IMG/VR virus record: IMGVR_UViG_3300020046_004077
DNA length: 64,000 nucleotides
Strand: one strand, 5' to 3'
Source of the DNA: a virus
Taxonomy: Duplodnaviria; Heunggongvirae; Uroviricota; Caudoviricetes
Positions 1 to 60,886 of this stretch are shown here, piece by piece (position 1 is the stretch's first letter; each line of letters opens with the position of its first letter). The translations under genes were made by a program, and so were the position numbers. The notes beneath the pieces were generated by a model. That model had not been told where the DNA came from. It saw only the letters and a program-made list of their open reading frames with translations, and made no database searches.

Positions 1-726
1 AGGTATACCATTAGCAGTACCATTTTGCCATGATGGTAACCCTCCTGACAAAGTAAGAACTTGTCCGTTGGACCCTATACCAAGATTAGTCCAAACTCCT
101 CCAGAATAGATAACTATGTCACCACTTGATGGTGTTATTGCTGAACTAAATGCTAGTCTATTGTTCAATTGAGTTTGAACAGAAGAGCTTACATCAAGGT
201 ATCCAAGAGTAACGTTTGAAACTGAAGAATGAGTAGGTATTCCATTACTGTCTGTTATAACTACAACATTTGGATTGATAGCAGCAGCTTCAGAAAACAC
301 TCCTGAACCGTTATTTACTAATAACCTGTTTGCTGTTCCAGCAGCTAACTTTGTTCTGGTTATATTAGCATTGGTTGCAATATCGTTATTTACAATAGAG
401 TTTGTTAAACTCAACTTGCTGTACGTTATTGCTGCTCCTGTGTTAATATTAGCATTTGTTATCGTATCTGCAGCTATACTTGCAACACCAGTGTTTGAGA
501 ATGTAACTTGTCCTGTGATTTGTCTTGGAGTTGCTACATTCGAGCTATTACCAACAAGTAGATAACCTGAACTAAGTGAGTTAGTCAGGTAAGTACTTGT
601 GTCTATTGTTGGAATAGAACCAACATCTTTAGTACTAGCATCCAGTGTAAGGATATTATCTCCTGTCCCACTAGGTAAGCTACCAAGAAGTTTTGCTCCA
701 TTTCTTATTACTAATTGTCCTGCCAT
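1..726 (-). CDS. tail fiber-like protein, N-terminal part (gene runs off window start); paralog of the 726..2324 fiber
   Basis: Minus-strand frame is open from ATG (rc of 724-726, TAATG stop/start overlap with upstream gene) to position 1. Translation MAGQLVIRNGAKLLGSLPSGTGDNILTLDASTKDVGSIPTIDTSTYLTNSLSSGYLLVGNSSNVATPRQITGQVTFSNTGVASIAADTITNANINTGAAITYSKLSLTNS...TANRLLVNNGSG...QTQLNN...GSNGQVLTLSGG repeats the NRLL.NGAG / QTQLN / GSSNQVLT / ..SKL blocks of the adjacent 532-aa fiber. Confidence 0.5.
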   Translation of the reverse strand, partial: MAGQLVIRNGAKLLGSLPSGTGDNILTLDASTKDVGSIPTIDTSTYLTNSLSSGYLLVGNSSNVATPRQITGQVTFSNTGVASIAADTITNANINTGAAITYSKLSLTNSIVNNDIATNANITRTKLAAGTANRLLVNNGSGVFSEAAAINPNVVVITDSNGIPTHSSVSNVTLGYLDVSSSVQTQLNNRLAFSSAITPSSGDIVIYSGGVWTNLGIGSNGQVLTLSGGLPSWQNGTANGIP

Positions 727-25822: not shown

Positions 25823-26368
25823 ATGAAAATAGCAATAACAGGTCATAGACCACATAAACTTGGTAATGACTATGATCTTACTAGTCCATTACTTCAGCTA
25901 ATTAAGTATCAAATTGAGAACTTACTAGCTAAGTATGATTTCATGAGTGAAACTGATCTTACGCTAATCACAGGGATGGCATTAGGCATTGATACTCTGT
26001 TTGCTCAAATAGCTATCAGTTTAAGAATACCGTTCATAGCTGCTATTCCTTGTAAAGGACAGTACACACGATGGCCTAAAAAGTCAGTAGATCAATATTT
26101 CAATATCCTGACACAATCCCATGATGTGTTTTTGGTAGACCATAGAGTTTCATTGCACAAAGATTTGGACAATCTTAAAACTTGTCTTTCACCTAGCGGT
26201 AACTCATATTCTACCCAGAAAATGCAACAGCGAAATATCTGGATGGTAAACAACTGTGATCTATTAATTGCAGTTTGGGATGGTTCATCTGGTGGTACAG
26301 CTAATTGTGTAAAATATGCACAATCAGTTGGTAAACAAATTATTCAAATTAACCCAAAGGAGTTATAA
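25823..26368 (+). CDS. YpsA-like SLOG-family protein (DUF1273)
   Basis: 181 aa; N-terminus MKIAITGHRPHKLG closely resembles B. subtilis YpsA MKVLAITGYKPFELG; Rossmann-like ITGMALGIDT and LLIAVWDGSSGGT motifs fit the SLOG/DprA/LOG superfamily. Confidence 0.5.
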   Translation: MKIAITGHRPHKLGNDYDLTSPLLQLIKYQIENLLAKYDFMSETDLTLITGMALGIDTLFAQIAISLRIPFIAAIPCKGQYTRWPKKSVDQYFNILTQSHDVFLVDHRVSLHKDLDNLKTCLSPSGNSYSTQKMQQRNIWMVNNCDLLIAVWDGSSGGTANCVKYAQSVGKQIIQINPKEL

Positions 26369-46328: not shown

Positions 46329-46684
46329 AAGACGGAATGATTGTATTCCCGGCAGTAGATCTGGAAGGTGATCGAAAATTAACCCTTGCGGCAGAAGTAC
46401 ATACTTTGCGTGATGATGAAGATGATGCAGTTGGAAGAGTAGCTACATTTGGTTATTCAATAAAGAATCCCAGTGATAAAGAGAATACCGAATTAGCTAA
46501 AGTAATTGCTAAAGGAAGGGCTTCAAAGAGTCCTGTTTTTATCTTCTCTACAGCAGGTTATGATATGCCAAGAGAGTTACTTAACAAAGTAGCAACTGTA
46601 GTACAAGAAGAGTTTAAAACACGACTTAATTACTACGTTCCATTATCAAAGAAAAAAGATGGAACAAGCAAAAAGATTCAATAA
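46325..46684 (+). CDS. hypothetical protein
   Basis: 119-aa ORF. Confidence 0.3.
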   Translation: MKDGMIVFPAVDLEGDRKLTLAAEVHTLRDDEDDAVGRVATFGYSIKNPSDKENTELAKVIAKGRASKSPVFIFSTAGYDMPRELLNKVATVVQEEFKTRLNYYVPLSKKKDGTSKKIQ

Positions 46685-46997
46685 AGGCAAACTCCGCTGG
46701 GGTTTAGTTGATTTTGAAGCAGTTGGTGAAATGGTCAAAGTCCTGGAAGCAGGAGCAATTAAGTACGGACCTGATAATTGGAAAAAAGGATTAAACAGAG
46801 AAGAAATCCTTGAATCAATACAGAGACACTTAATTTCAACCTTTGAAAAAGAAGAGGTTGATCAGGAACTTGGCACTTATCACATAGCTAACATAATGGC
46901 TAACTGTATGTTTTACCTATACCATCACAGAAATGATAGTTTCAGTGATCAAAGGAACAATCCCTTTGTAAAACAAGAGATTGAAAAGAAGGCTTAA
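46659..46997 (+). CDS. dATP/dGTP pyrophosphohydrolase-like protein (N-terminal domain type)
   Basis: NKGKLRWGLVDFEAV...AGAIKYGPDNWKKG resembles the NxGKxRxxLxP...GAxKY..NW signature of phage dNTP diphosphohydrolase domains. Confidence 0.4.
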   Translation: MEQAKRFNKGKLRWGLVDFEAVGEMVKVLEAGAIKYGPDNWKKGLNREEILESIQRHLISTFEKEEVDQELGTYHIANIMANCMFYLYHHRNDSFSDQRNNPFVKQEIEKKA

Positions 46998-49031: not shown

Positions 49032-50046
49032 TCAATGTCCTACAGGAACAGAATGGTCAGGACTTTTAGTCTACCAAATTGTTGAAGGGGATGTTGACGA
49101 ATTCACAAAAAACGATAAAGCTTACTTAGAAATAAAGGCTGAAGCTGTGTTCCCAATGGATTTTGGAGACGCAGGATTCACCAGCTTTGAGGGGAGTGTA
49201 GATTGGATTAAATGTTTCCAGCAATACCCTCAAATTGATCCAATGAATCCCGAACCGGGCTGGTATGTGGGTAAAATTCATAGCCACCATAACATGAACG
49301 TGTTTCATTCAGTAACAGATAACACTGACTTAGAACAAAATGCTCCTAAGTTACCTATCTTCCTTTCACTTATTGTAAATTATAAGTGTGAGTTAGATTG
49401 CAAATTAGCGATTGCTATGGAGTCCAAGGAGATAGTTCTTACAAGAACAGAATGGAAGTTTAAGAGTTGGAAGACTTGGAAAAAAGCGGTAAAGAAAGAG
49501 GAAAAACAAAAACCTGGTGTATTTACCATTGCTTGTAAGACTACTTATGAGCAAGAAGATTGGTTTGTAGATCAAACAGAACAGCTTGCAGCAAGAAAGA
49601 AAACCTCGCAGTATAGCTACAAACCACCTCAACAAGAAAGTACTAATAAAGTATTACTTCCCCATGAGGGAGATGCGGCTACAGACGTTAGTCAGGAAAC
49701 AATGAAGAGAGTTCTTAATAACTTCCCGGAACTTGTTTCTTTAAACTGTTTGAAGTTAGTAACTCCACTTGAATCAATAACAGTAGTTGATCGGGATTTG
49801 AAGGTGGAAGATATGGAAAACTATAAGAAAGCGTTTAAAGCTTACTTTACAAGTGTTTGGTTTGATAAACACTTTTCTGACACTAAGATTGAACATACAG
49901 AAGTTCTTGATGGTATTAGGAAGTTTCTAAATCATCATCACGGTTGGCTTGTAGGACATTTAAAGAATTTAACTAATGAGCTCAGAGAAGAATACGACTC
50001 ACTTTGGCCGTTTCAAGGGTCTTCCGTGGTTCGAGCCGATCTCTAA
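48949..50046 (+). CDS. JAB/MPN+ (JAMM) metallopeptidase with ~200-aa C-terminal extension
   Basis: N-terminal domain: ...TEWSGLLVYQ (conserved Glu) ... GWYVGKIHSHHNMNVFHSVTD = H-x-H-x7-S-x2-D JAMM zinc motif. Confidence 0.65.
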   Translation: MQKEQTPKREVLVVVTEKLAGQIHFLHSQCPTGTEWSGLLVYQIVEGDVDEFTKNDKAYLEIKAEAVFPMDFGDAGFTSFEGSVDWIKCFQQYPQIDPMNPEPGWYVGKIHSHHNMNVFHSVTDNTDLEQNAPKLPIFLSLIVNYKCELDCKLAIAMESKEIVLTRTEWKFKSWKTWKKAVKKEEKQKPGVFTIACKTTYEQEDWFVDQTEQLAARKKTSQYSYKPPQQESTNKVLLPHEGDAATDVSQETMKRVLNNFPELVSLNCLKLVTPLESITVVDRDLKVEDMENYKKAFKAYFTSVWFDKHFSDTKIEHTEVLDGIRKFLNHHHGWLVGHLKNLTNELREEYDSLWPFQGSSVVRADL

Positions 50047-50731
50047 TTCCAGTATCTTTATTGGAGGTGCTGGAGGAATATCATCCTGGTTAACTTTCTT
50101 TCTTGCAAGAGCCGGGGCTACTATTTATGTAGTAGACAACGATGTAGTAGATGAAGTAAATCTTGCCGGTCAATTGTACGGTAAGGAAGACGTAGGTAAG
50201 AGTAAAGTTGAAGCCATTTCAGATGTAGTTACAAGACTTTGTGGAGAGAATAACATAACCCCTGTAGAAACCTTTATAGATGAAAATGGAGGGTTGTGGA
50301 CTAACTTGATAGCTCAGAGTGATGTAGTTTGCGTAGGTTTTGACAACCTTAAAGCAAGGGAACTTGTATACAAGGAGTGGAGGGCTAATGGTAAAGAAAA
50401 GTCATTCTTTGTTGACGGAAGATTGTCAGCAGAAAATGGTCAGATTTTCACTCTTTCCAAAGACTCTTTGGAACTGGATTTTACAGCTTATGAGCAAACT
50501 TATTTTCCTGAATCAGAAAGGGTAGAATTACCTTGCAGTATGAAAGCTACAAGTCATTGCGGGGCTTTAATAGCATCATTAATGACTGCTCAGATTACTA
50601 ATTGGTTTAATAATGGTTTAGAGGAGAATGTTCCAAGAACTACTTCAAATATTGAATTTCATTTACAATTAATGATTTTCGATCAACCAAAGTACAAAGT
50701 AAAAACAGAAGTTTATGTTAACGAAGTTTAG
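49976..50731 (+). CDS. ThiF/MoeB/E1-like adenylyltransferase (ubiquitin-activating-enzyme family)
   Basis: IFIGGAGGISSWLTFFLARAGATIYVVDNDVVDEVNLAGQ = E1 Rossmann GxGxxG plus D-x-D...N-L-x-x-Q nucleotide-binding signature; CGALIASLMTAQI matches the E1 G..G...A.E..K region; Cys in PCSMKATSHCG. Confidence 0.65.
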   Translation: MSSEKNTTHFGRFKGLPWFEPISNSSIFIGGAGGISSWLTFFLARAGATIYVVDNDVVDEVNLAGQLYGKEDVGKSKVEAISDVVTRLCGENNITPVETFIDENGGLWTNLIAQSDVVCVGFDNLKARELVYKEWRANGKEKSFFVDGRLSAENGQIFTLSKDSLELDFTAYEQTYFPESERVELPCSMKATSHCGALIASLMTAQITNWFNNGLEENVPRTTSNIEFHLQLMIFDQPKYKVKTEVYVNEV

Positions 50732-55909: not shown

Positions 55910-56158
55910 ATGAACAACATGGTTTTAGTGGCTGCCGGACTCTTATCAACAGAGGAGATCGTAGACAGGCTTGAAGGTGCAATACAGAACTATAGAATAG
56001 TTCCTGATGAGGAAAAAATTTTAGGTGTCGAGATGTGGTGTGCAATTCTCATGACTCACCAAGCAGCTAAAGACAAAAAAGATGGTGTACTGGGTGTAGC
56101 AAAAGACCTGGATAACATGGCAAAAGCTGAAAAGTTTATAAAGCCTAATCAAAATTAA
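55910..56158 (+). CDS. hypothetical protein
   Basis: 82-aa ORF. Confidence 0.3.
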   Translation: MNNMVLVAAGLLSTEEIVDRLEGAIQNYRIVPDEEKILGVEMWCAILMTHQAAKDKKDGVLGVAKDLDNMAKAEKFIKPNQN

Positions 56159-56196
56159 ACTAACCAAGCCATTTAGCTCAAAGTCTATACGGGTTT

Positions 56197-57060
56197 TTGA
56201 TAGCTTCTCCTGTATGTAAAAATAGAGCCTACGAAGACGAGCGTAAAGATGCAAGATTGACGATCTTGCGATGGCTTACTTTTATTATGAAATACGAAAG
56301 AATAAAGTATCCTGATGGACAGATCTCAGTTAAAATAACTGATATAGAAGGTCCGTTGGAGATCAGAGAAAGAATAAACTCTTATGAAGACTTGTTCTTC
56401 TTAAGAGCATTAGCTGATGCTATTCACACAGCTTATGCAGACCCAATCATTCATGTAGCAATACCTTGTATGTTTGGTCAAAGAAGTGATCGTAGGTTTC
56501 ATCCTCACCAATCCTTTGACTTAAAGTTAATTGCTGAAGTAATTAATAGCTGTAATTTTACAACTGTTAATATCCTGGATCCTCATTCAGACGTAACACT
56601 TGCTTTAATTAATAAGTCTTACAAAGAAGGTGTTGAACACTTTGTAACTCAAGCCGTTGAGTCTATAGCTAAATTAACAAAAGAAGAGATAGTACTTGTT
56701 TCCCCCGATGCCGGAGCGTACAAGAAAGTATTTGAACTAGGTACTAATCTTGAACTTCCTGTAGTTGCGGGAGTTAAGCACAGAGATAACGAAGGAAAAA
56801 TAGATCTTCAGTTTACAGGAGATGTAAAAGACAAGAATTGTCTTATTGTAGACGACATTTGCGATGGTGGGTACACATTCATCGTTCTTGCTAAAAAGCT
56901 TCTTGAACAAGGAGCAAAGCGTGTGTACCTCTATGCTACTCATGGATATTTTTCCAAGGGTATTAATGTATTAGAAGATTGTGGTTTATCACACATCTTC
57001 TGTACTAATTCAGTAAAGGATGTAGATCATCCATTTGTAACTCAATTTAAAATAATATGA
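56197..57060 (+). CDS. prs: ribose-phosphate pyrophosphokinase-like (PRPP synthetase / type I PRTase fold)
   Basis: 287 aa; PRPP-binding loop NCLIVDDICDGGYTF, N-terminal Prs-like domain. Confidence 0.55.
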   Translation: MIASPVCKNRAYEDERKDARLTILRWLTFIMKYERIKYPDGQISVKITDIEGPLEIRERINSYEDLFFLRALADAIHTAYADPIIHVAIPCMFGQRSDRRFHPHQSFDLKLIAEVINSCNFTTVNILDPHSDVTLALINKSYKEGVEHFVTQAVESIAKLTKEEIVLVSPDAGAYKKVFELGTNLELPVVAGVKHRDNEGKIDLQFTGDVKDKNCLIVDDICDGGYTFIVLAKKLLEQGAKRVYLYATHGYFSKGINVLEDCGLSHIFCTNSVKDVDHPFVTQFKII

Positions 57061-57129
57061 ACGAAAGTAAAAAAGTCTATCAGGTAGTAGATAATAACTG
57101 GTTTAACAGATTAATAGCTAAAATCTTTT

Positions 57130-57321
57130 ATGGGGTCGATTTTGAGTCGAATTAACGATGACTACGAAGAATATGAGTACGTATGTGATTTATTGAACAT
57201 ACGTCCTCATTTCTTGAGAGGGTTAAAAGAAGGAGATACTTTCTACAACCACCTTAAACAACTCTGTAATGAACATGGTGTTCATACAGTAGATGAATTA
57301 ATTAAAAAATTGAAAAAATGA
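57130..57321 (+). CDS. hypothetical small protein
   Basis: 63-aa ORF. Confidence 0.25.
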   Translation: MGSILSRINDDYEEYEYVCDLLNIRPHFLRGLKEGDTFYNHLKQLCNEHGVHTVDELIKKLKK

Positions 57322-59033
57322 ATCCACTACTATTAGTTGATTATTATAAAACGGAACATCATCGTATGCTACCAGAAGGTACTACAATGATCTATTCCAA
57401 CTTCACTCCAAGAAAGAGTAGAATTCCTGGAATAGACAAGGTTGTATTCTTTGGATTACAGCATTTCTGTCTTGAGTATTTGATTAAAGAATTTGACAAG
57501 CTCTTCTTTCACAAACAGGACATAGAGAATGAAGTTGAAAGACTTGGAGGTCTTCAAGGAGTTGACAGTAAAACATTAACCACTATCAAGTTAATTTACA
57601 AGTCCTCTGTTATTAAAGAGTATCAGAAGCACATTCCTGTAGATACTAAGCACATTGAAGCTTTGTGGGATTTAGGTTATTTACCTATTGAAATTAAAGC
57701 TGTTCCAGAAGGTACTTTAGTTCCAATTGGAGTTCCCTGCTTTACAATTAAAAATACACATCCTGACTTTGCCTGGTTAACAAATTACTTGGAAACCTTA
57801 ATTTCAACTATGATGTGGCAACCAATTACTTCAGCAACAATAGCTTATGAATACAAAAAAGTCCTTTCAAAATACGCATTGGAAACTACAGGATCTTCAG
57901 AATTCGTTCAGTGGCAAGGTCATGACTTTTCTATGCGTGGTATGTCTAGTATTGAATCCGCTATTCTTTCTGGCATGGGTCATCTTACATCGTTTACCGG
58001 AACGGATACTATTCCAGCTATATATCAGCTTGAAGAATCTTACGGAGCTACAGGGCTTATCGGTGCTTCTGTACCTGCTACTGAGCACAGTGTTATGTGT
58101 ATGGGTACTAAAGAAGCTGAGGTGGACACCTTCAAAAGGCTTCTGGATCTATATCCTACTGGTATTCTTAGTGTCGTTTCTGATACATGGAATCTTTGGG
58201 AAGTCCTGACAGTTCACCTTCCTCAAATTAAGGATCAAATCCTTTCAAGAGATGGTAAACTTGTTATTCGTCCAGATTCTGGTGACCCTGTAGATATTCT
58301 ATGTGGAGTAGAGTATTATCAAAATACGGATGGGAAATATTACTACAAGCGTGGAGGACAACTTAAGGAAGTACCTGAACCAGAAAGAAAAGGTGTAATT
58401 GAACTTCTCTGGGATTTGTTTGGAGGTAAAGTAAATGAATATGGATATAAAGAACTTGATCCTCATATTGGTGCTATCTATGGCGATTCTATCACTCTGG
58501 AACGTGCCGCTCAGATTTGTGAGAGACTCAAAGCTAAAGGTTTCGCTTCGACTAATGTGGTTCTTGGTATTGGTAGTTACACTTACCAGTATAATACTCG
58601 TGATACTTTCGGCTTTGCGATGAAAGCTACCTACGGTGAAGTATTAAATGTACCTACTGTTAAAGTAAAGAAGGCTGGAGGAGAAGAAGTTGAAATAGCT
58701 TTTGATCGTTCTAACCCTAAACATCTTGATCTTATCAAAGCAACTTACAGTCTGACTGGTAGAGAAGATCTTGTTGAAACTAGAGAAATCTACAAAGATC
58801 CAATTACTGATGATGGTACTAAGAGGTCTAAGAAAGGTCTTTTACAAGTATTTAACAATTATTGGGATACTCATCCAGCAATGCAGAAGTTTGATGGAAC
58901 TGATGAGTTGAAAGTAAATGATCAATGTACTTGGGAACAAGAAAACGGAGGCTTACTTGAAACTGTTTTCAAAAACGGTGAGTTAGTAAGAACTACTACC
59001 CTGGAAGAAATCAGAGAAAGATTGAAAGTATGA
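57318..59033 (+). CDS. nadV: nicotinamide phosphoribosyltransferase (NadV/Nampt) with C-terminal extension
   Basis: 571 aa; N-terminus MNPLLLVDYYKTEHHRMLPEGTT matches the Nampt N-terminal motif (D-x-YK-x-xH); overall type II PRTase-like. Confidence 0.65.
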   Translation: MNPLLLVDYYKTEHHRMLPEGTTMIYSNFTPRKSRIPGIDKVVFFGLQHFCLEYLIKEFDKLFFHKQDIENEVERLGGLQGVDSKTLTTIKLIYKSSVIKEYQKHIPVDTKHIEALWDLGYLPIEIKAVPEGTLVPIGVPCFTIKNTHPDFAWLTNYLETLISTMMWQPITSATIAYEYKKVLSKYALETTGSSEFVQWQGHDFSMRGMSSIESAILSGMGHLTSFTGTDTIPAIYQLEESYGATGLIGASVPATEHSVMCMGTKEAEVDTFKRLLDLYPTGILSVVSDTWNLWEVLTVHLPQIKDQILSRDGKLVIRPDSGDPVDILCGVEYYQNTDGKYYYKRGGQLKEVPEPERKGVIELLWDLFGGKVNEYGYKELDPHIGAIYGDSITLERAAQICERLKAKGFASTNVVLGIGSYTYQYNTRDTFGFAMKATYGEVLNVPTVKVKKAGGEEVEIAFDRSNPKHLDLIKATYSLTGREDLVETREIYKDPITDDGTKRSKKGLLQVFNNYWDTHPAMQKFDGTDELKVNDQCTWEQENGGLLETVFKNGELVRTTTLEEIRERLKV

Positions 59034-59389
59034 TAAGCTACAAATTACTGCTAGCCATTGGGTTAATCCACTGGTTAGCAGATTTTGCTCTACAGACTCA
59101 TTGGCAAGCGTCTAATAAATCAGACGACATGTTTGCATTACTAAAACATGTAGCAACCTACTCTTTAGTTTGGTTGCTCTTCTCTACCATTCACTTTGAA
59201 CATTTCGGGACAGGTGTAGTCTTTGCAGTAATTACATTCGTTACACACTTTGCTATTGATCTTATTACTAGTCACATTGTTAAACAGTGTTTTGATGAAG
59301 GAGACTACCATAATGGTTTTGTAGTTATAGGATTTGATCAAATCTTACATTACGTCCAGTTAATCTTAACTTACGAATTACTAAAATGA
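59030..59389 (+). CDS. multi-pass membrane protein
   Basis: 119 aa with three or four hydrophobic segments. Confidence 0.35.
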   Translation: MISYKLLLAIGLIHWLADFALQTHWQASNKSDDMFALLKHVATYSLVWLLFSTIHFEHFGTGVVFAVITFVTHFAIDLITSHIVKQCFDEGDYHNGFVVIGFDQILHYVQLILTYELLK

Positions 59390-60201
59390 AAAGATTTGCA
59401 ATAGGAGACATTCACGGGAACCATAAGGCTCTCGTGCAATGTCTTGAAAGAAGTGGGTTTGACAAAGAGAAAGATCAATTAATCACCTTGGGAGACATTG
59501 CTGATGGTTGGCACGAAGTATACGAATGTGTAGAAGAGCTGTTAACTATCAAGAATAGAGTCGATATTCATGGTAATCATGATGATTGGTTTTTGCAGTG
59601 GTTAAAAACTGACAAGCATCCAGACAACTGGGTACAAGGCGGAGAAGGAACTCTTAGATCATATACTAAGAAGCTGGGCTTTGGCTACGGTAAGCTGCAG
59701 ACTGGTGGCTGGGATCTTGGTGACCCAAGAAGGTTAACTACTGGAATGGCCCCTACAGATATTCCAGAGAGTCACAGAGACTTTTTCTATAACCAGAAAC
59801 CTTATTATAGAGATGGATTAGATAACATCTTTGTACATGGAGGGTTTAACAGGCACTATCTAATGGATGAGCAAGTAGCTTATACTTTATGGTGGGATAG
59901 AGATTTGTTTTACGCTGCTTTAGCTACTTCGGGGATCAACTATAACTCTTGTAGTGATAGAATCCTGAAGTTCAAAGATAAGAGTATCAATGAGGTGTTT
60001 ATCGGGCATACACAAACTACTTACTGGAAGGATAAAGCTAATCAGCCAATTACAGTTCCTATCTTTACAGACAGGATCATCAATCTTGATACTGGAGGTG
60101 GTTGGAATGGAGTTATAACCATTATGAATGTTGATACAAAGGAGTATTGGCAGTCTGATAAAGCTATGGAACTATACCCAGGAGAAAAAGGAAGAAATTA
60201 A
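59386..60201 (+). CDS. Ser/Thr phosphatase / ApaH-like metallophosphoesterase (PPP family)
   Basis: FAIGDIHGNHKAL, LGDIADGWHE, DIHGNHDDWF = GDxHG / GDxxDRG-like / GNH[DE]. Confidence 0.7.
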   Translation: MKRFAIGDIHGNHKALVQCLERSGFDKEKDQLITLGDIADGWHEVYECVEELLTIKNRVDIHGNHDDWFLQWLKTDKHPDNWVQGGEGTLRSYTKKLGFGYGKLQTGGWDLGDPRRLTTGMAPTDIPESHRDFFYNQKPYYRDGLDNIFVHGGFNRHYLMDEQVAYTLWWDRDLFYAALATSGINYNSCSDRILKFKDKSINEVFIGHTQTTYWKDKANQPITVPIFTDRIINLDTGGGWNGVITIMNVDTKEYWQSDKAMELYPGEKGRN

Positions 60202-60641
60202 TGGAACAACCTATTGTATTTGCTTATTGGAAAGATGATGAATTTAAAGGCTTTAGAGCTGACACATTTAACACGATTTCAAAGAAGTCCCCCAAAATCT
60301 ATCTTTATACTAAGAAACAGGTAGAGATTGTGATAAATAATGTTAAAAGTGGCTGTAATCAAGCCGGAACAAAATTCATGAAAGAACTTTTAAACTCTAA
60401 AGCCACAGTAATTAACACAACTGGCGAAGATTTAAATGATCTTTTAGTAGGACATTTAAGCAGAACTGAACAGAAATTCAGGGAATGGAAAACTTTTGAA
60501 CTTAGAGTTCATCCTTTTACCTCACCCGAAGAATTCTATTCTCTTCGTGAAGGAGATGAGTGGAAACTAAACAAGTATCTAACTGAGTTAGAACCTGCAT
60601 TAGAAGTACATAAATTTCAGATATTAGAGAATGAAAATTAA
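60201..60641 (+). CDS. hypothetical protein
   Basis: 146-aa ORF. Confidence 0.3.
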   Translation: MEQPIVFAYWKDDEFKGFRADTFNTISKKSPKIYLYTKKQVEIVINNVKSGCNQAGTKFMKELLNSKATVINTTGEDLNDLLVGHLSRTEQKFREWKTFELRVHPFTSPEEFYSLREGDEWKLNKYLTELEPALEVHKFQILENEN

Positions 60642-60703
60642 TACAAAAATCTTATGTTTAACCTAACCCAAAGTGCCATGAAGTAAGTTAAATAGCTTAA
60701 ATC

Positions 60704-60841: not shown

Positions 60842-60845
60842 GTAA

Positions 60846-60886
60846 TACCCAGATTGAGCTTCGGCTTGGTCTGGGTATTTTTTTTC
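60846..60886 (+). terminator. terminator hairpin at convergence of plus block and minus-strand large gene
   Basis: TACCCAGA-(16 nt)-TCTGGGTA followed by TTTTTTTTT. Confidence 0.6.

Follow-up and report, generated by a model that had tools for sequence, protein, structure and literature searches.

Introduction

Two neighbouring genes in a 64-kb stretch of viral DNA (hereafter the window; 64 kb of a genome of about 95–100 kb) raise the question of which NAD+-forming pathway they encode. The upstream gene product resembles PRPP synthetase (Prs) and the downstream one resembles Nampt (NadV). The initial annotation read them as a salvage pair in which Prs makes PRPP for Nampt, in which the missing NMN adenylyltransferase (Nmnat) may be replaced by a non-canonical partner, and which is a candidate counter-measure to defences that deplete NAD+ (Thoeris, DSR and SIR2/SEFIR systems, for instance). 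Both genes are indeed real and adjacent on the same strand, with family matches far beyond chance. There is, however, another pathway with enzymes of these two folds, that is, NARP1 (NAD+ reconstitution pathway 1), in which Adps and Namat rebuild NAD+ from ADP-ribose and nicotinamide against NAD+-depleting bacterial immunity (Osterman et al. 2024) and for which structures are available (PMC12774641, PMC13586617).

To judge from comparisons of the encoded proteins, the locus is very probably a NARP1 operon, encoding Adps and Namat, in a crAss-like phage. Family membership is shown by signatures in the sequences, by the conserved catalytic residues and by the linkage of the genes; we infer both the chemistry and the role in anti-defence from experiments on the homologs of Bacillus phage SPbetaL1, E. 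coli phage Bas63, Bacillus phage FADO and Vibrio phage ICP1. NARP1 has already been described, and the locus adds another example of it rather than a PRPP-synthetase/Nampt pair missing a partner enzyme. The result for the window alone is an ordinary one, its only mildly new aspect being the translationally coupled cargo downstream.

Organization of the Locus

The two ORFs lie head to tail with 258 bp between them (Table 1). The phage is a crAss-like virus, as indicated by a Crass_capsid match (3e-61), and is without a close cultured relative. A megablast search of positions 56000–60700 against 50,697 phage records or genomes gave zero matches, so the identification was made via protein comparisons. 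The start of the Prs-like gene had been placed at 56197, which is a mechanical TTG; relatives begin with MKYEKI or MFERI, and these N-termini support the ATG at 56287 and a protein of 257 aa, which is most likely the true extent of the gene.

Table 1. Positions of predicted genes and sequence features in and around the putative NARP1 operon
Feature	Position	Strand	Remarks
adps, predicted ADP-ribose pyrophosphokinase (Prs-like), 257 aa	56287..57060	+	Start by N-termini of relatives
Adps-type block DPHSDVTLALIN	56578..56613	+	Includes His100 (= ICP1 His121)
Adps catalytic Lys164 codon	56776-56778	+	Aligned to ICP1 Lys185
Adps PP loop / donor site DDICDGGYTF	56851..56880	+	Aligned to ICP1 Asp212-Phe221
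orf63, conserved, 63 aa, between adps and namat	57130..57321	+	Stop overlaps namat start (ATGA)
namat, predicted nicotinamide ADP-ribose transferase (Nampt-like), 571 aa	57318..59033	+	
Namat clamp-loop Arg35 codon	57420-57422	+	
Namat insertion, aa 77-98	57546-57611	+	
Namat insertion, aa ~331-353	~58308-58376	+	
Namat selectivity-clamp helix GSYTYQYNTRD, aa 419-429	58572..58604	+	
Largest Namat internal insertion, aa 442-486	58641..58775	+	From alignments to SPbetaL1 Namat and metagenomic relatives
Namat insertion, aa ~517-527		+	
DUF3307 small integral-membrane protein, 119 aa	59030..59389	+	ATGA at both ends, translationally coupled
Metallophosphoesterase, lambda-PP / ApaH / PnkP clade	59386..60201	+	Translationally coupled
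orf146, conserved, fold unassigned	60201..60641	+	Has the invariant motif GFRADTF; ends the gene block
Terminator-like hairpin, 16-bp stem + T-run	60844..60879	+	Closes the + strand block

The Prs-like Protein

The Prs-like protein matches PHROG 619 (3e-61) and the Pfam families Pribosyl_synth and Pribosyltran, and its best match in a set of PDB sequences that does not contain the ICP1 Adps structures is B. subtilis Prs (6e-18). Pairwise BLAST gave 108 bits and 40% identity with the Adps of ICP1, 93 bits and 39% with that of SPbetaL1 (both comparison sequences were drawn from phage records) and 76 bits and 28% with E. coli Prs, a margin over the cellular enzyme that appears modest in this kind of comparison. 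With an HMM made from two validated Adps and 66 NARP1-linked homologs that are all less than 45% identical to the window protein, the window protein scored 239 bits and E. coli Prs, the one cellular Prs compared directly, 91 bits. In addition, the Prs equivalog cut-offs of NCBIfam were all missed (NF002320, 105 bits vs 297; NF002095, 93 vs 296), and the broad subfamily model TIGR01251 was barely passed (120 bits vs a cut-off of 113).

Residue roles have been described for ICP1 Adps (PMC13586617), and its Arg87, His121, Asp161, Lys185, Asp212, Asp213 and Phe221 correspond to Arg66, His100, Asp141, Lys164, Asp189, Asp190 and Phe198 of the window protein, that is, all are conserved; the first six, the acceptor and catalytic residues (Arg87 to Asp213), are invariant in a three-way alignment. 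Furthermore, the ‘DLHA.QIQGFF’ block of Prs, which reads DLHAEQIQGFFD in E. coli, is replaced in the window protein by DPHSDVTLALIN, with the equivalents DPHSDVTPALIN in ICP1 and EPHSDVTPALIN in SPbetaL1. The pattern DPHSDVT.ALIN is common to the Adps proteins only, in a comparison with one cellular Prs (E. coli), and a block of the DPHSDV type is found in most of 72 relatives. The PP loop of the window protein (DDICDGGYTF) resembles that of ICP1 (DDICDGAASF), the corresponding sequences being DDLSSFGGTF in SPbetaL1 and DDMIDTGGTL in E. coli Prs; this loop alone is not discriminating, because the validated Adps differ among themselves. The protein also has no C-terminal α11-α12 module of Prs: it is 257 aa long as against 315 and ends about 30 residues short of the E. 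coli Prs C-terminus. Loss of this module has been called the ‘defining evolutionary signature’ of Adps (PMC13586617).

The Nampt-like Protein

The Nampt-like protein matches PHROG 448 (1.5e-185) and the Pfam families NAPRTase (1e-36) and NAMPT_N, and passes NF006629 (540 bits vs 405). Its best PDB matches are 9W5X and 9W5W, which are structures of SPbetaL1 Namat (E=4e-155, 521 bits), and SPbetaL1 is also its top match among the 50,697 phage records, with 50% identity. Rat/human Nampt and Xanthomonas Nampt gave 217 and 203 bits, respectively, and by these bit scores the validated Namat is a nearer relative of the window protein than the validated Nampt enzymes are. The second-best Namat-like PDB match is 9KE8.

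The catalytic core of Namat was defined, in SPbetaL1 numbering, by the nicotinamide-stacking Tyr/Phe, Asp215, the catalytic His and Arg306/Asp308, and alignment to 9W5X and relatives indicates that the window protein keeps it with Asp8, Tyr10, His257 (in PATEHSV), and Arg318 and Asp320 (in IRPDSGD). The published adenine-clamp signature of Namat is GS-X-φ1-X-φ2-X-φ3-TRD with an aromatic residue at each of positions 3 and 7 (PMC12774641). GSYTYQYNTRD of the window protein fits it exactly, whereas the same position in Xanthomonas Nampt reads GGALLQKVDRD and is without these aromatic residues; the strict motif is fitted by 72 of the 80 relatives. Moreover, Arg35 (TPRKSR) aligns to Arg40 (TPRTSR) of SPbetaL1, which lies in the clamp loop and stacks on the adenine (PMC12774641).

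The extra length of about 80 aa had been described as a C-terminal extension, but the C-termini align within two residues (query 569 = residue 489 of 491 in SPbetaL1 Namat), and the 80 residues are distributed over four internal insertions (Table 1). Relatives vary at the same four sites, where they carry unrelated insertions of 0–100 aa. The enzyme may have different properties as a result of the insertions, of which one, 45 aa long, follows the clamp helix closely.

Linkage of the Two Genes

An adps gene lies within 6 kb of namat on the same strand in 72 of 80 related viral loci, and seven of the eight unlinked loci have truncated flanks. Published data indicate that 97% of the genes in the Adps clade adjoin Namat. 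As for orf63, which separates the two genes in the window, it has no Pfam, PHROG or NCBIfam match; a HMMER scan of 1.84 billion representatives gave about nine small homologs of 57–68 aa with 39–53% identity, and none occurs in the 80 related NARP1 loci.

Predicted Pathway and Alternative Interpretations

If the enzymes act as their validated homologs do, a host NADase effector (e.g., Thoeris ThsA, DSR1/2, SIR2-HerA or SEFIR) would cleave NAD+ to ADP-ribose and nicotinamide, Adps would pyrophosphorylate ADP-ribose at its 1'' hydroxyl with the β,γ-pyrophosphate of ATP to give ADPR-PP and AMP, and Namat would join ADPR-PP and nicotinamide directly to NAD+ with release of pyrophosphate. PRPP, NMN and Nmnat would play no part in such a pathway. 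Of the reading offered at the outset, the idea of NAD+ reconstitution as counter-defence is retained, by homology to validated systems, and the PRPP/NMN enzymology is not: the Adps features and the ADPR-PP selectivity clamp of Namat contradict a Prs that makes PRPP for Nampt. The observation that no Nmnat can be recognised was correct. Profile searches of the neighbours, including orf63, the metallophosphoesterase gene and orf146, which had been proposed for this check, and of 71 other ORFs of the window yielded neither an Nmnat or Nudix domain nor a Macro or RyR domain, and no CTP_transf_like, NUDIX, NadR or PnuC match was obtained among its 80 ORFs. This absence is expected and leaves no gap, because NARP1 yields NAD+ in two steps without Nmnat; a non-canonical partner is not needed, and the C-terminal hint of one does not exist. 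Databases and gene callers still give the names ‘ribose-phosphate pyrophosphokinase’ and ‘nicotinamide phosphoribosyltransferase’ to such genes, names that lead to the false inference of a missing Nmnat, and the present assignment corrects this annotation habit.

The classical route, in which the Prs-like enzyme supplies PRPP, NadV/Nampt forms NMN and the last step to NAD+ falls to an Nmnat of the host or an unrecognised one of the phage, like NARP2 with its partner missing, is to be regarded as highly improbable. The generic family models (TIGR01251 and NF006629) are passed, NadD or NadR is normally present in hosts, and Namat enzymes in vitro keep about half of the PRPP-dependent NMN-forming activity of human Nampt (PMC12774641), so some PRPP-dependent flux is possible. 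Against this stand the clamp signature and Arg35, which NARP2-type and cellular Nampt do not have, the Adps-specific features together with the wide margin by which the Prs equivalog cut-offs are missed, and the lack of an Nmnat or Nudix gene in the 64-kb window. According to the literature, 94% of the phage genes in the Nampt clade are accompanied by Nmnat, they are not accompanied by Adps, and Nampt-Nmnat and Adps-Namat were not present together in any phage. That Adps and Namat form mainly an auxiliary metabolic module, providing NAD+ for replication by, for example, recycling ADPR from housekeeping turnover, is very unlikely as well. The operon does end a replication and nucleotide-metabolism block, near genes for DNA polymerase, helicases, UDG and a dNTP diphosphohydrolase-like protein; nevertheless, the phenotype of NARP1 deletion was specific to hosts with NAD+-depleting defences in three tested phages (literature), the substrate ADPR accumulates when NADases fire, and genes for Macro/Adpp and NADAR, which handle immune-derived ADPR derivatives, have been recruited into the operons of relatives. 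An intact NARP1 in a divergent crAss-like lineage would imply that these viruses, which are abundant and for the most part uncultured, are under selection from NAD+-depleting immunity.

Comparison with Known Systems

The locus shares with the NARP1 of SPbetaL1, Bas63, FADO and ICP1 the two-gene, same-strand adps-namat arrangement, Namat's clamp and its catalytic core, and the catalytic residues, DPHSDVT.ALIN block and shortened C-terminus of Adps. It is different from them in that identity to the validated proteins is just 34–40% for Adps and 50% for Namat, Namat has 80 more residues, the genes are set apart by a 63-aa ORF, the operon runs on into the DUF3307, metallophosphatase and orf146 genes, and the carrier is a crAss-like phage. 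NARP1-AP of Vibrio phage Gary consists of Adps, a Macro-domain Adpp and Namat (bioRxiv 10.64898/2026.01.28.702374) and thus also combines the NARP1 core with a phosphatase-class gene in one operon, but the phosphatase in the window is an unrelated calcineurin-like metallophosphoesterase, and an assignment to NARP1-AP was rejected since neither the operon nor the rest of the window gave a Macro (Adpp) match.

NARP2 of Vibrio phage KVP40 (Nampt and a bifunctional Nmnat/Nudix) likewise employs a Nampt-family enzyme to rebuild NAD+ against depleting defences; it uses PRPP and NMN and needs Nmnat, whereas the window has Adps and a clamp-bearing Namat, and with no Nmnat/Nudix among the 80 ORFs this assignment was rejected too. 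NARP3 of phage Bas30, a PnuC-like transporter with a NadR-like enzyme (PMC13464706), resembles the present locus in being a phage module for restoring NAD+ with a membrane protein among its products, but DUF3307 is unrelated by sequence to PnuC, and NARP3 was rejected for want of a PnuC or NadR homolog among the same ORFs. Finally, cellular class I Prs and Nampt/NadV salvage enzymes have the same folds and match the same generic family models; compared with cellular Prs, the window protein is without the regulatory and filament-forming C-terminal module and about 25 N-terminal residues.

Downstream Genes

The operon continues with three genes, of which the first encodes a DUF3307 protein (Pfam PF11750, 3.5e-10; PHROG 2470, 1e-18) with the invariant intramembrane pairs H14/D18, H73/D77 and D103/H107. 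The second encodes a metallophosphatase (Pfam Metallophos, 3.7e-9; PHROG 246, 3e-41), whose AF2 model (pLDDT 93) has lambda phosphatase 1G5B, the PnkP phosphatase domain and ApaH as its best Foldseek matches and which has GDxxDGW where the PPP motif reads GDxxDRG. Cargo across the NARP1 loci of relatives includes Macro, NADAR, Nuc_deoxyri_tr2, metallophosphatase and DUF3307, with Macro/Adpp-like genes in the operons of 22 of the 80, and such loci, collecting NAD/ADPR-related cargo, serve as a useful catalogue of enzymes that are candidates for an accessory role in anti-defence. DUF3307 homologs sit between adps and namat in four loci (L016, L033, L060 and L069), and the NARP1 operons of six contain metallophosphatase homologs (L008, L012, L017, L036, L103 and L104). 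A tight and exclusive linkage of either gene to NARP1 is unsupported, as independently seeded homologs are mostly elsewhere: DUF3307 homologs lie near adps in just 3 of 11 cases, and metallophosphatase homologs lie away from NARP1 in 2/4 and 4/4 of the sampled cases. DUF3307, the metallophosphatase and orf146, together with the intervening orf63, are best described as variable cargo of uncertain relevance.

A rather unlikely extension of the pathway is that the metallophosphatase, and possibly DUF3307, convert a modified product of NAD+ breakdown, e.g., ADPR-1''-phosphate (from aRES), 2'-phospho-ADPR, NADP or the like, into a substrate for NARP1 such as ADPR, or into NAD+, so that the two may be non-homologous counterparts of Adpp in NARP1-AP or of RyDEP. 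Such accessory enzymes feeding NARP1 have precedent in Adpp and RyDEP; start and stop codons overlap all the way through namat, DUF3307, the metallophosphatase and orf146; and metallophosphatase homologs are found inside or directly abutting NARP1 in at least six further loci and three gene orders, and never together with Macro (present in 22 of 72 loci). If true, the phage would overcome a wider range of NAD+-targeting defences. The samples are, however, small and phylogenetically non-independent, many close homologs of the metallophosphatase lie away from NARP1 and few independently seeded DUF3307 homologs lie near adps (counts above), and the lambda-PP/PnkP/ApaH fold class equally fits RNA-end healing or protein dephosphorylation, with RNA ligase and kinase genes nearby in relatives.

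The hairpin beyond orf146 sits where the block converges with a giant minus-strand gene. Stop-codon recoding of this gene, suspected from a JGI call of 2373 aa vs 961 aa in the ORF list, was rejected; its frame stays open to the window end.

The NARP1 operon

Work published in 2024 characterised this type of gene pair as NAD+ reconstitution pathway 1 (NARP1), in which Adps, which is homologous to Prs, adds pyrophosphate to ADP-ribose to yield ADPR-PP, and Namat, which is homologous to Nampt, produces NAD+ directly from ADPR-PP and nicotinamide (Osterman et al. 2024). NARP1 is present in 4.3% of phages and overcomes Thoeris, DSR1/2, SIR2-HerA and SEFIR; Namat adjoins 97% of Adps-clade genes, NARP2 (Nampt + Nmnat, as in phage KVP40) forms a clade of its own, and the two pathways occur together in no phage (Osterman et al. 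2024). Judged by sequence comparison, this divergent crAss-like phage carries an intact NARP1 operon, and we infer the chemistry and phenotype of the gene pair from homologs. The initial annotation took the genes as an NAD+ salvage pair; as an NAD+-reconstituting counter-defence module this stands by homology, but its PRPP/NMN chemistry and its missing or non-canonical partner were wrong, because NARP1 needs neither PRPP nor NMN and works without Nmnat. Phage counter-defence of this kind is already known and is common, and the value of the check is that the enzymology is corrected, supposed anomalies are removed and variable operon cargo is flagged for NARP1 accessory-enzyme screens.

The assignment to the crAss-like phages comes from a Crassvirus major capsid protein in the structural block (Crass_capsid PF23898, 3e-61) and from a DNA polymerase I closest to the enzymes of such phages (22-27% identity), and no nucleotide-level relative was found among 50,697 phage genomes. 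The downstream genes of the operon (DUF3307, metallophosphoesterase and 146-aa ORF) overlap throughout at ATGA/TAATG junctions, and the same operon is also present, identical, on a JGI metagenome contig.

Features of the window and of related loci (L numbers)
Feature	Position	Strand	Remarks
adps, Prs-like ORF	56197-57060	+	mechanical TTG start; PHROG 619 and Pfam
orf63, 63 aa, between adps and namat	57130-57321	+	
namat, Nampt-like ORF, 571 aa	57318-59033	+	PHROG 448 and Pfam
DUF3307 membrane protein	59030-59389	+	downstream of namat
Calcineurin-like metallophosphoesterase	59386-60201	+	
146-aa ORF	60201-60641	+	last gene of block
Terminator-like hairpin, 16-bp stem	60844-60879		closes block opposite giant convergent gene
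Giant convergent gene	60887 to beyond 64000	-	frame open up to window end
Structural block	1-25400	-	
YpsA/DprA-like SLOG-domain protein	25823-26368	+	PF06908, 1e-11
dATP/dGTP diphosphohydrolase N-terminal domain protein	46659-46997	+	PF18909, 2.8e-24; MazZ-like
ThiF-family E1-like protein	49976-50731	+	1.4e-24
Nuc_deoxyri_tr2, example	L065:7652-8209		
Macro/Adpp-like, example	L074:4845-5483		
NADAR, example	L068:3573-4088		
Family without Pfam match, ~144 aa	e.g. L051:5097-5669		15 loci
Family without Pfam match, ~167 aa	e.g. L043:4853-5413		12 loci
Namat called as two ORFs	L104:7252-8659		243 + 235 aa

Adps

The adps product matches the PHROG 619 'ribose-phosphate pyrophosphokinase' (3e-61) as well as Pfam Pribosyl_synth and Pribosyltran. 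Structural work sets Adps apart by its acceptor and catalytic residues, by a PP loop that is remodelled and by the absence of the alpha11-alpha12 module found at the C-terminus of Prs (PMC13586617). Compared with the validated Adps of ICP1 and SPbetaL1, the window protein has invariant Arg66, His100, Asp141, Lys164, Asp189/190 and Phe198 at the positions of ICP1 Arg87, His121, Asp161, Lys185, Asp212/213 and Phe221, and it shares with both enzymes the block DPHSDVTLALIN, in place of which E. coli Prs has DLHAEQIQGFFD. It ends about 30 residues before the Prs C-terminus, about 25 N-terminal Prs residues are also missing, and its PP loop, DDICDGGYTF, resembles that of ICP1, but the validated Adps vary among themselves here, so that the loop by itself does not tell Adps from Prs.

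Pairwise scores were 108 bits with ICP1 Adps, 93 bits with SPbetaL1 Adps and 76 bits with E. coli Prs, and an HMM built on 66 NARP1-linked homologs (<45% identity to the window protein) and the two validated Adps gave 239 bits for the window protein and 91 bits for E. coli Prs. Moreover, the NCBIfam Prs equivalog cut-offs are missed widely (e.g., 105 bits vs 297), the broad TIGR01251 subfamily being the only NCBIfam Prs model that is passed, and barely. The true start of adps is most likely ATG 56287, giving 257 aa, because the proteins of relatives begin with MKYEKI or MFERI.

Namat

The namat product matches PHROG 448 (1.5e-185) and Pfam NAPRTase and NAMPT_N. By HMMER it scores 521 bits (E=4e-155) against SPbetaL1 Namat (PDB entries 9W5X/9W5W), compared with about 215 bits for rat/human Nampt and 203 bits for that of Xanthomonas, and SPbetaL1 is also its top match among the 50,697 phage genomes (50% identity). 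In Namat the adenine 'selectivity clamp' combines Arg40, which lies in a loop, with a helix of the form GS-X-phi-X-phi-X-phi-TRD that has aromatics at positions 3 and 7 (PMC12774641). The window protein carries the exact signature GSYTYQYNTRD at aa 419-429, where Xanthomonas Nampt has GGALLQKVDRD; its Arg35 is aligned with the clamp-loop Arg40 of SPbetaL1, and the core residues Asp8, Tyr10, His257, Arg318 and Asp320 are kept. The strict clamp motif is fitted by 72 of 80 Namat relatives, and nearly all the others are off at one position. Since Namat enzymes partly retain PRPP-dependent activity in vitro (PMC12774641), a minor Nampt-like side activity of the window enzyme is conceivable.

The C-terminal extension of about 80 aa ascribed to NadV does not exist, for the HMMER alignment reaches query residue 569 at SPbetaL1 Namat 489/491; the 80 extra residues lie in four internal insertions (aa 77-98, ~331-353, 442-486 and ~517-527). 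At the same sites metagenomic relatives (484-608 aa) have insertions whose sequences are unrelated and whose lengths differ greatly; this indicates lineage-variable surface loops, not a domain pointing to a new partner.

Linkage and the NMN adenylyltransferase

In 72 of the 80 viral contigs encoding Namat relatives (49-69% identity) an Adps homolog shares the strand of namat and is no more than 6 kb away, and seven of the other eight loci are on truncated contigs. No Nmnat, Nudix, Macro, RyR, NadR or PnuC domain was found in the operon neighbours and 71 further ORFs on both strands of the 64-kb window, the genome being perhaps about 92-100 kb as related contigs suggest. The earlier observation that no NMN adenylyltransferase is recognised in the window was therefore confirmed, and the proposed profile search of neighbouring ORFs for Nmnat/Nudix folds gave no match.

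Accessory genes

The 63-aa orf63 has no family match but has some nine small homologs. Three His/Asp pairs within the membrane are invariant in DUF3307, for which a literature search gave no function. The confident metallophosphatase model (pLDDT 93) is nearest to lambda phosphatase, the PnkP phosphatase domain and ApaH, and every metal-ligand motif is present. GDxxDGW is, however, invariant across its family (alignment A7) in place of the GDxxDRG of PPP-family phosphatases, and this loss of the phosphate-binding Arg suggests that substrate is bound differently than in classical lambda-PP.

Recurrent cargo in the NARP1 operons of relatives (80 loci, L003-L082) includes Nuc_deoxyri_tr2 (30), Macro/Adpp (22), Band_7 (13) and NADAR (6); Nuc_deoxyri_tr2 and the two families without Pfam match count as candidates for accessory factors of NARP1. 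In L008, L012, L017, L036, L103 and L104 the metallophosphatase gene lies within the operon or directly next to it, with three gene orders among them and in no case alongside Macro, and in four loci DUF3307 separates adps from namat. That these accessory genes are a functional extension of NARP1 is nevertheless improbable, because independently seeded homologs are often elsewhere (metallophosphatase 6/8, DUF3307 8/11 away from NARP1) and because a role of the metallophosphatase in RNA repair, in keeping with RNA ligase and kinase genes near the loci of relatives, is an equally good reading.

In three jumbo-phage contigs (L088-L090, 118-434 kb) an Adps homolog has a DUF3307 gene about 1.1 kb upstream, and a search of the 12-kb loci detected neither Namat nor Nampt homologs; this Adps may be separated from its partner or paired with a different one. 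The split Namat of L104 may stem from a frameshift or an error of assembly, or it may be a pseudogene.

Other genes of the phage

The structural block also contains a match to the Cpn10 (GroES-like) co-chaperonin (8.7e-8). SLOG domains bind nucleotide-derived ligands, cADPR isomers in the case of Thoeris ThsA, and the phage SLOG protein could serve as a sponge for the signal or as an enzyme that processes nucleotides. MazZ-like proteins occur in phages modifying their purines; a PurZ-like adenylosuccinate synthetase was not seen within the 64-kb window. A ThiF-family protein is encoded as well. Stop-codon recoding is not needed for the giant gene, its reading frame being open through to the window end; on JGI contig Ga0206648_1001864 the same gene encodes 2373 aa, and its versions in the relatives L100 and L105 have 4644-5033 aa.
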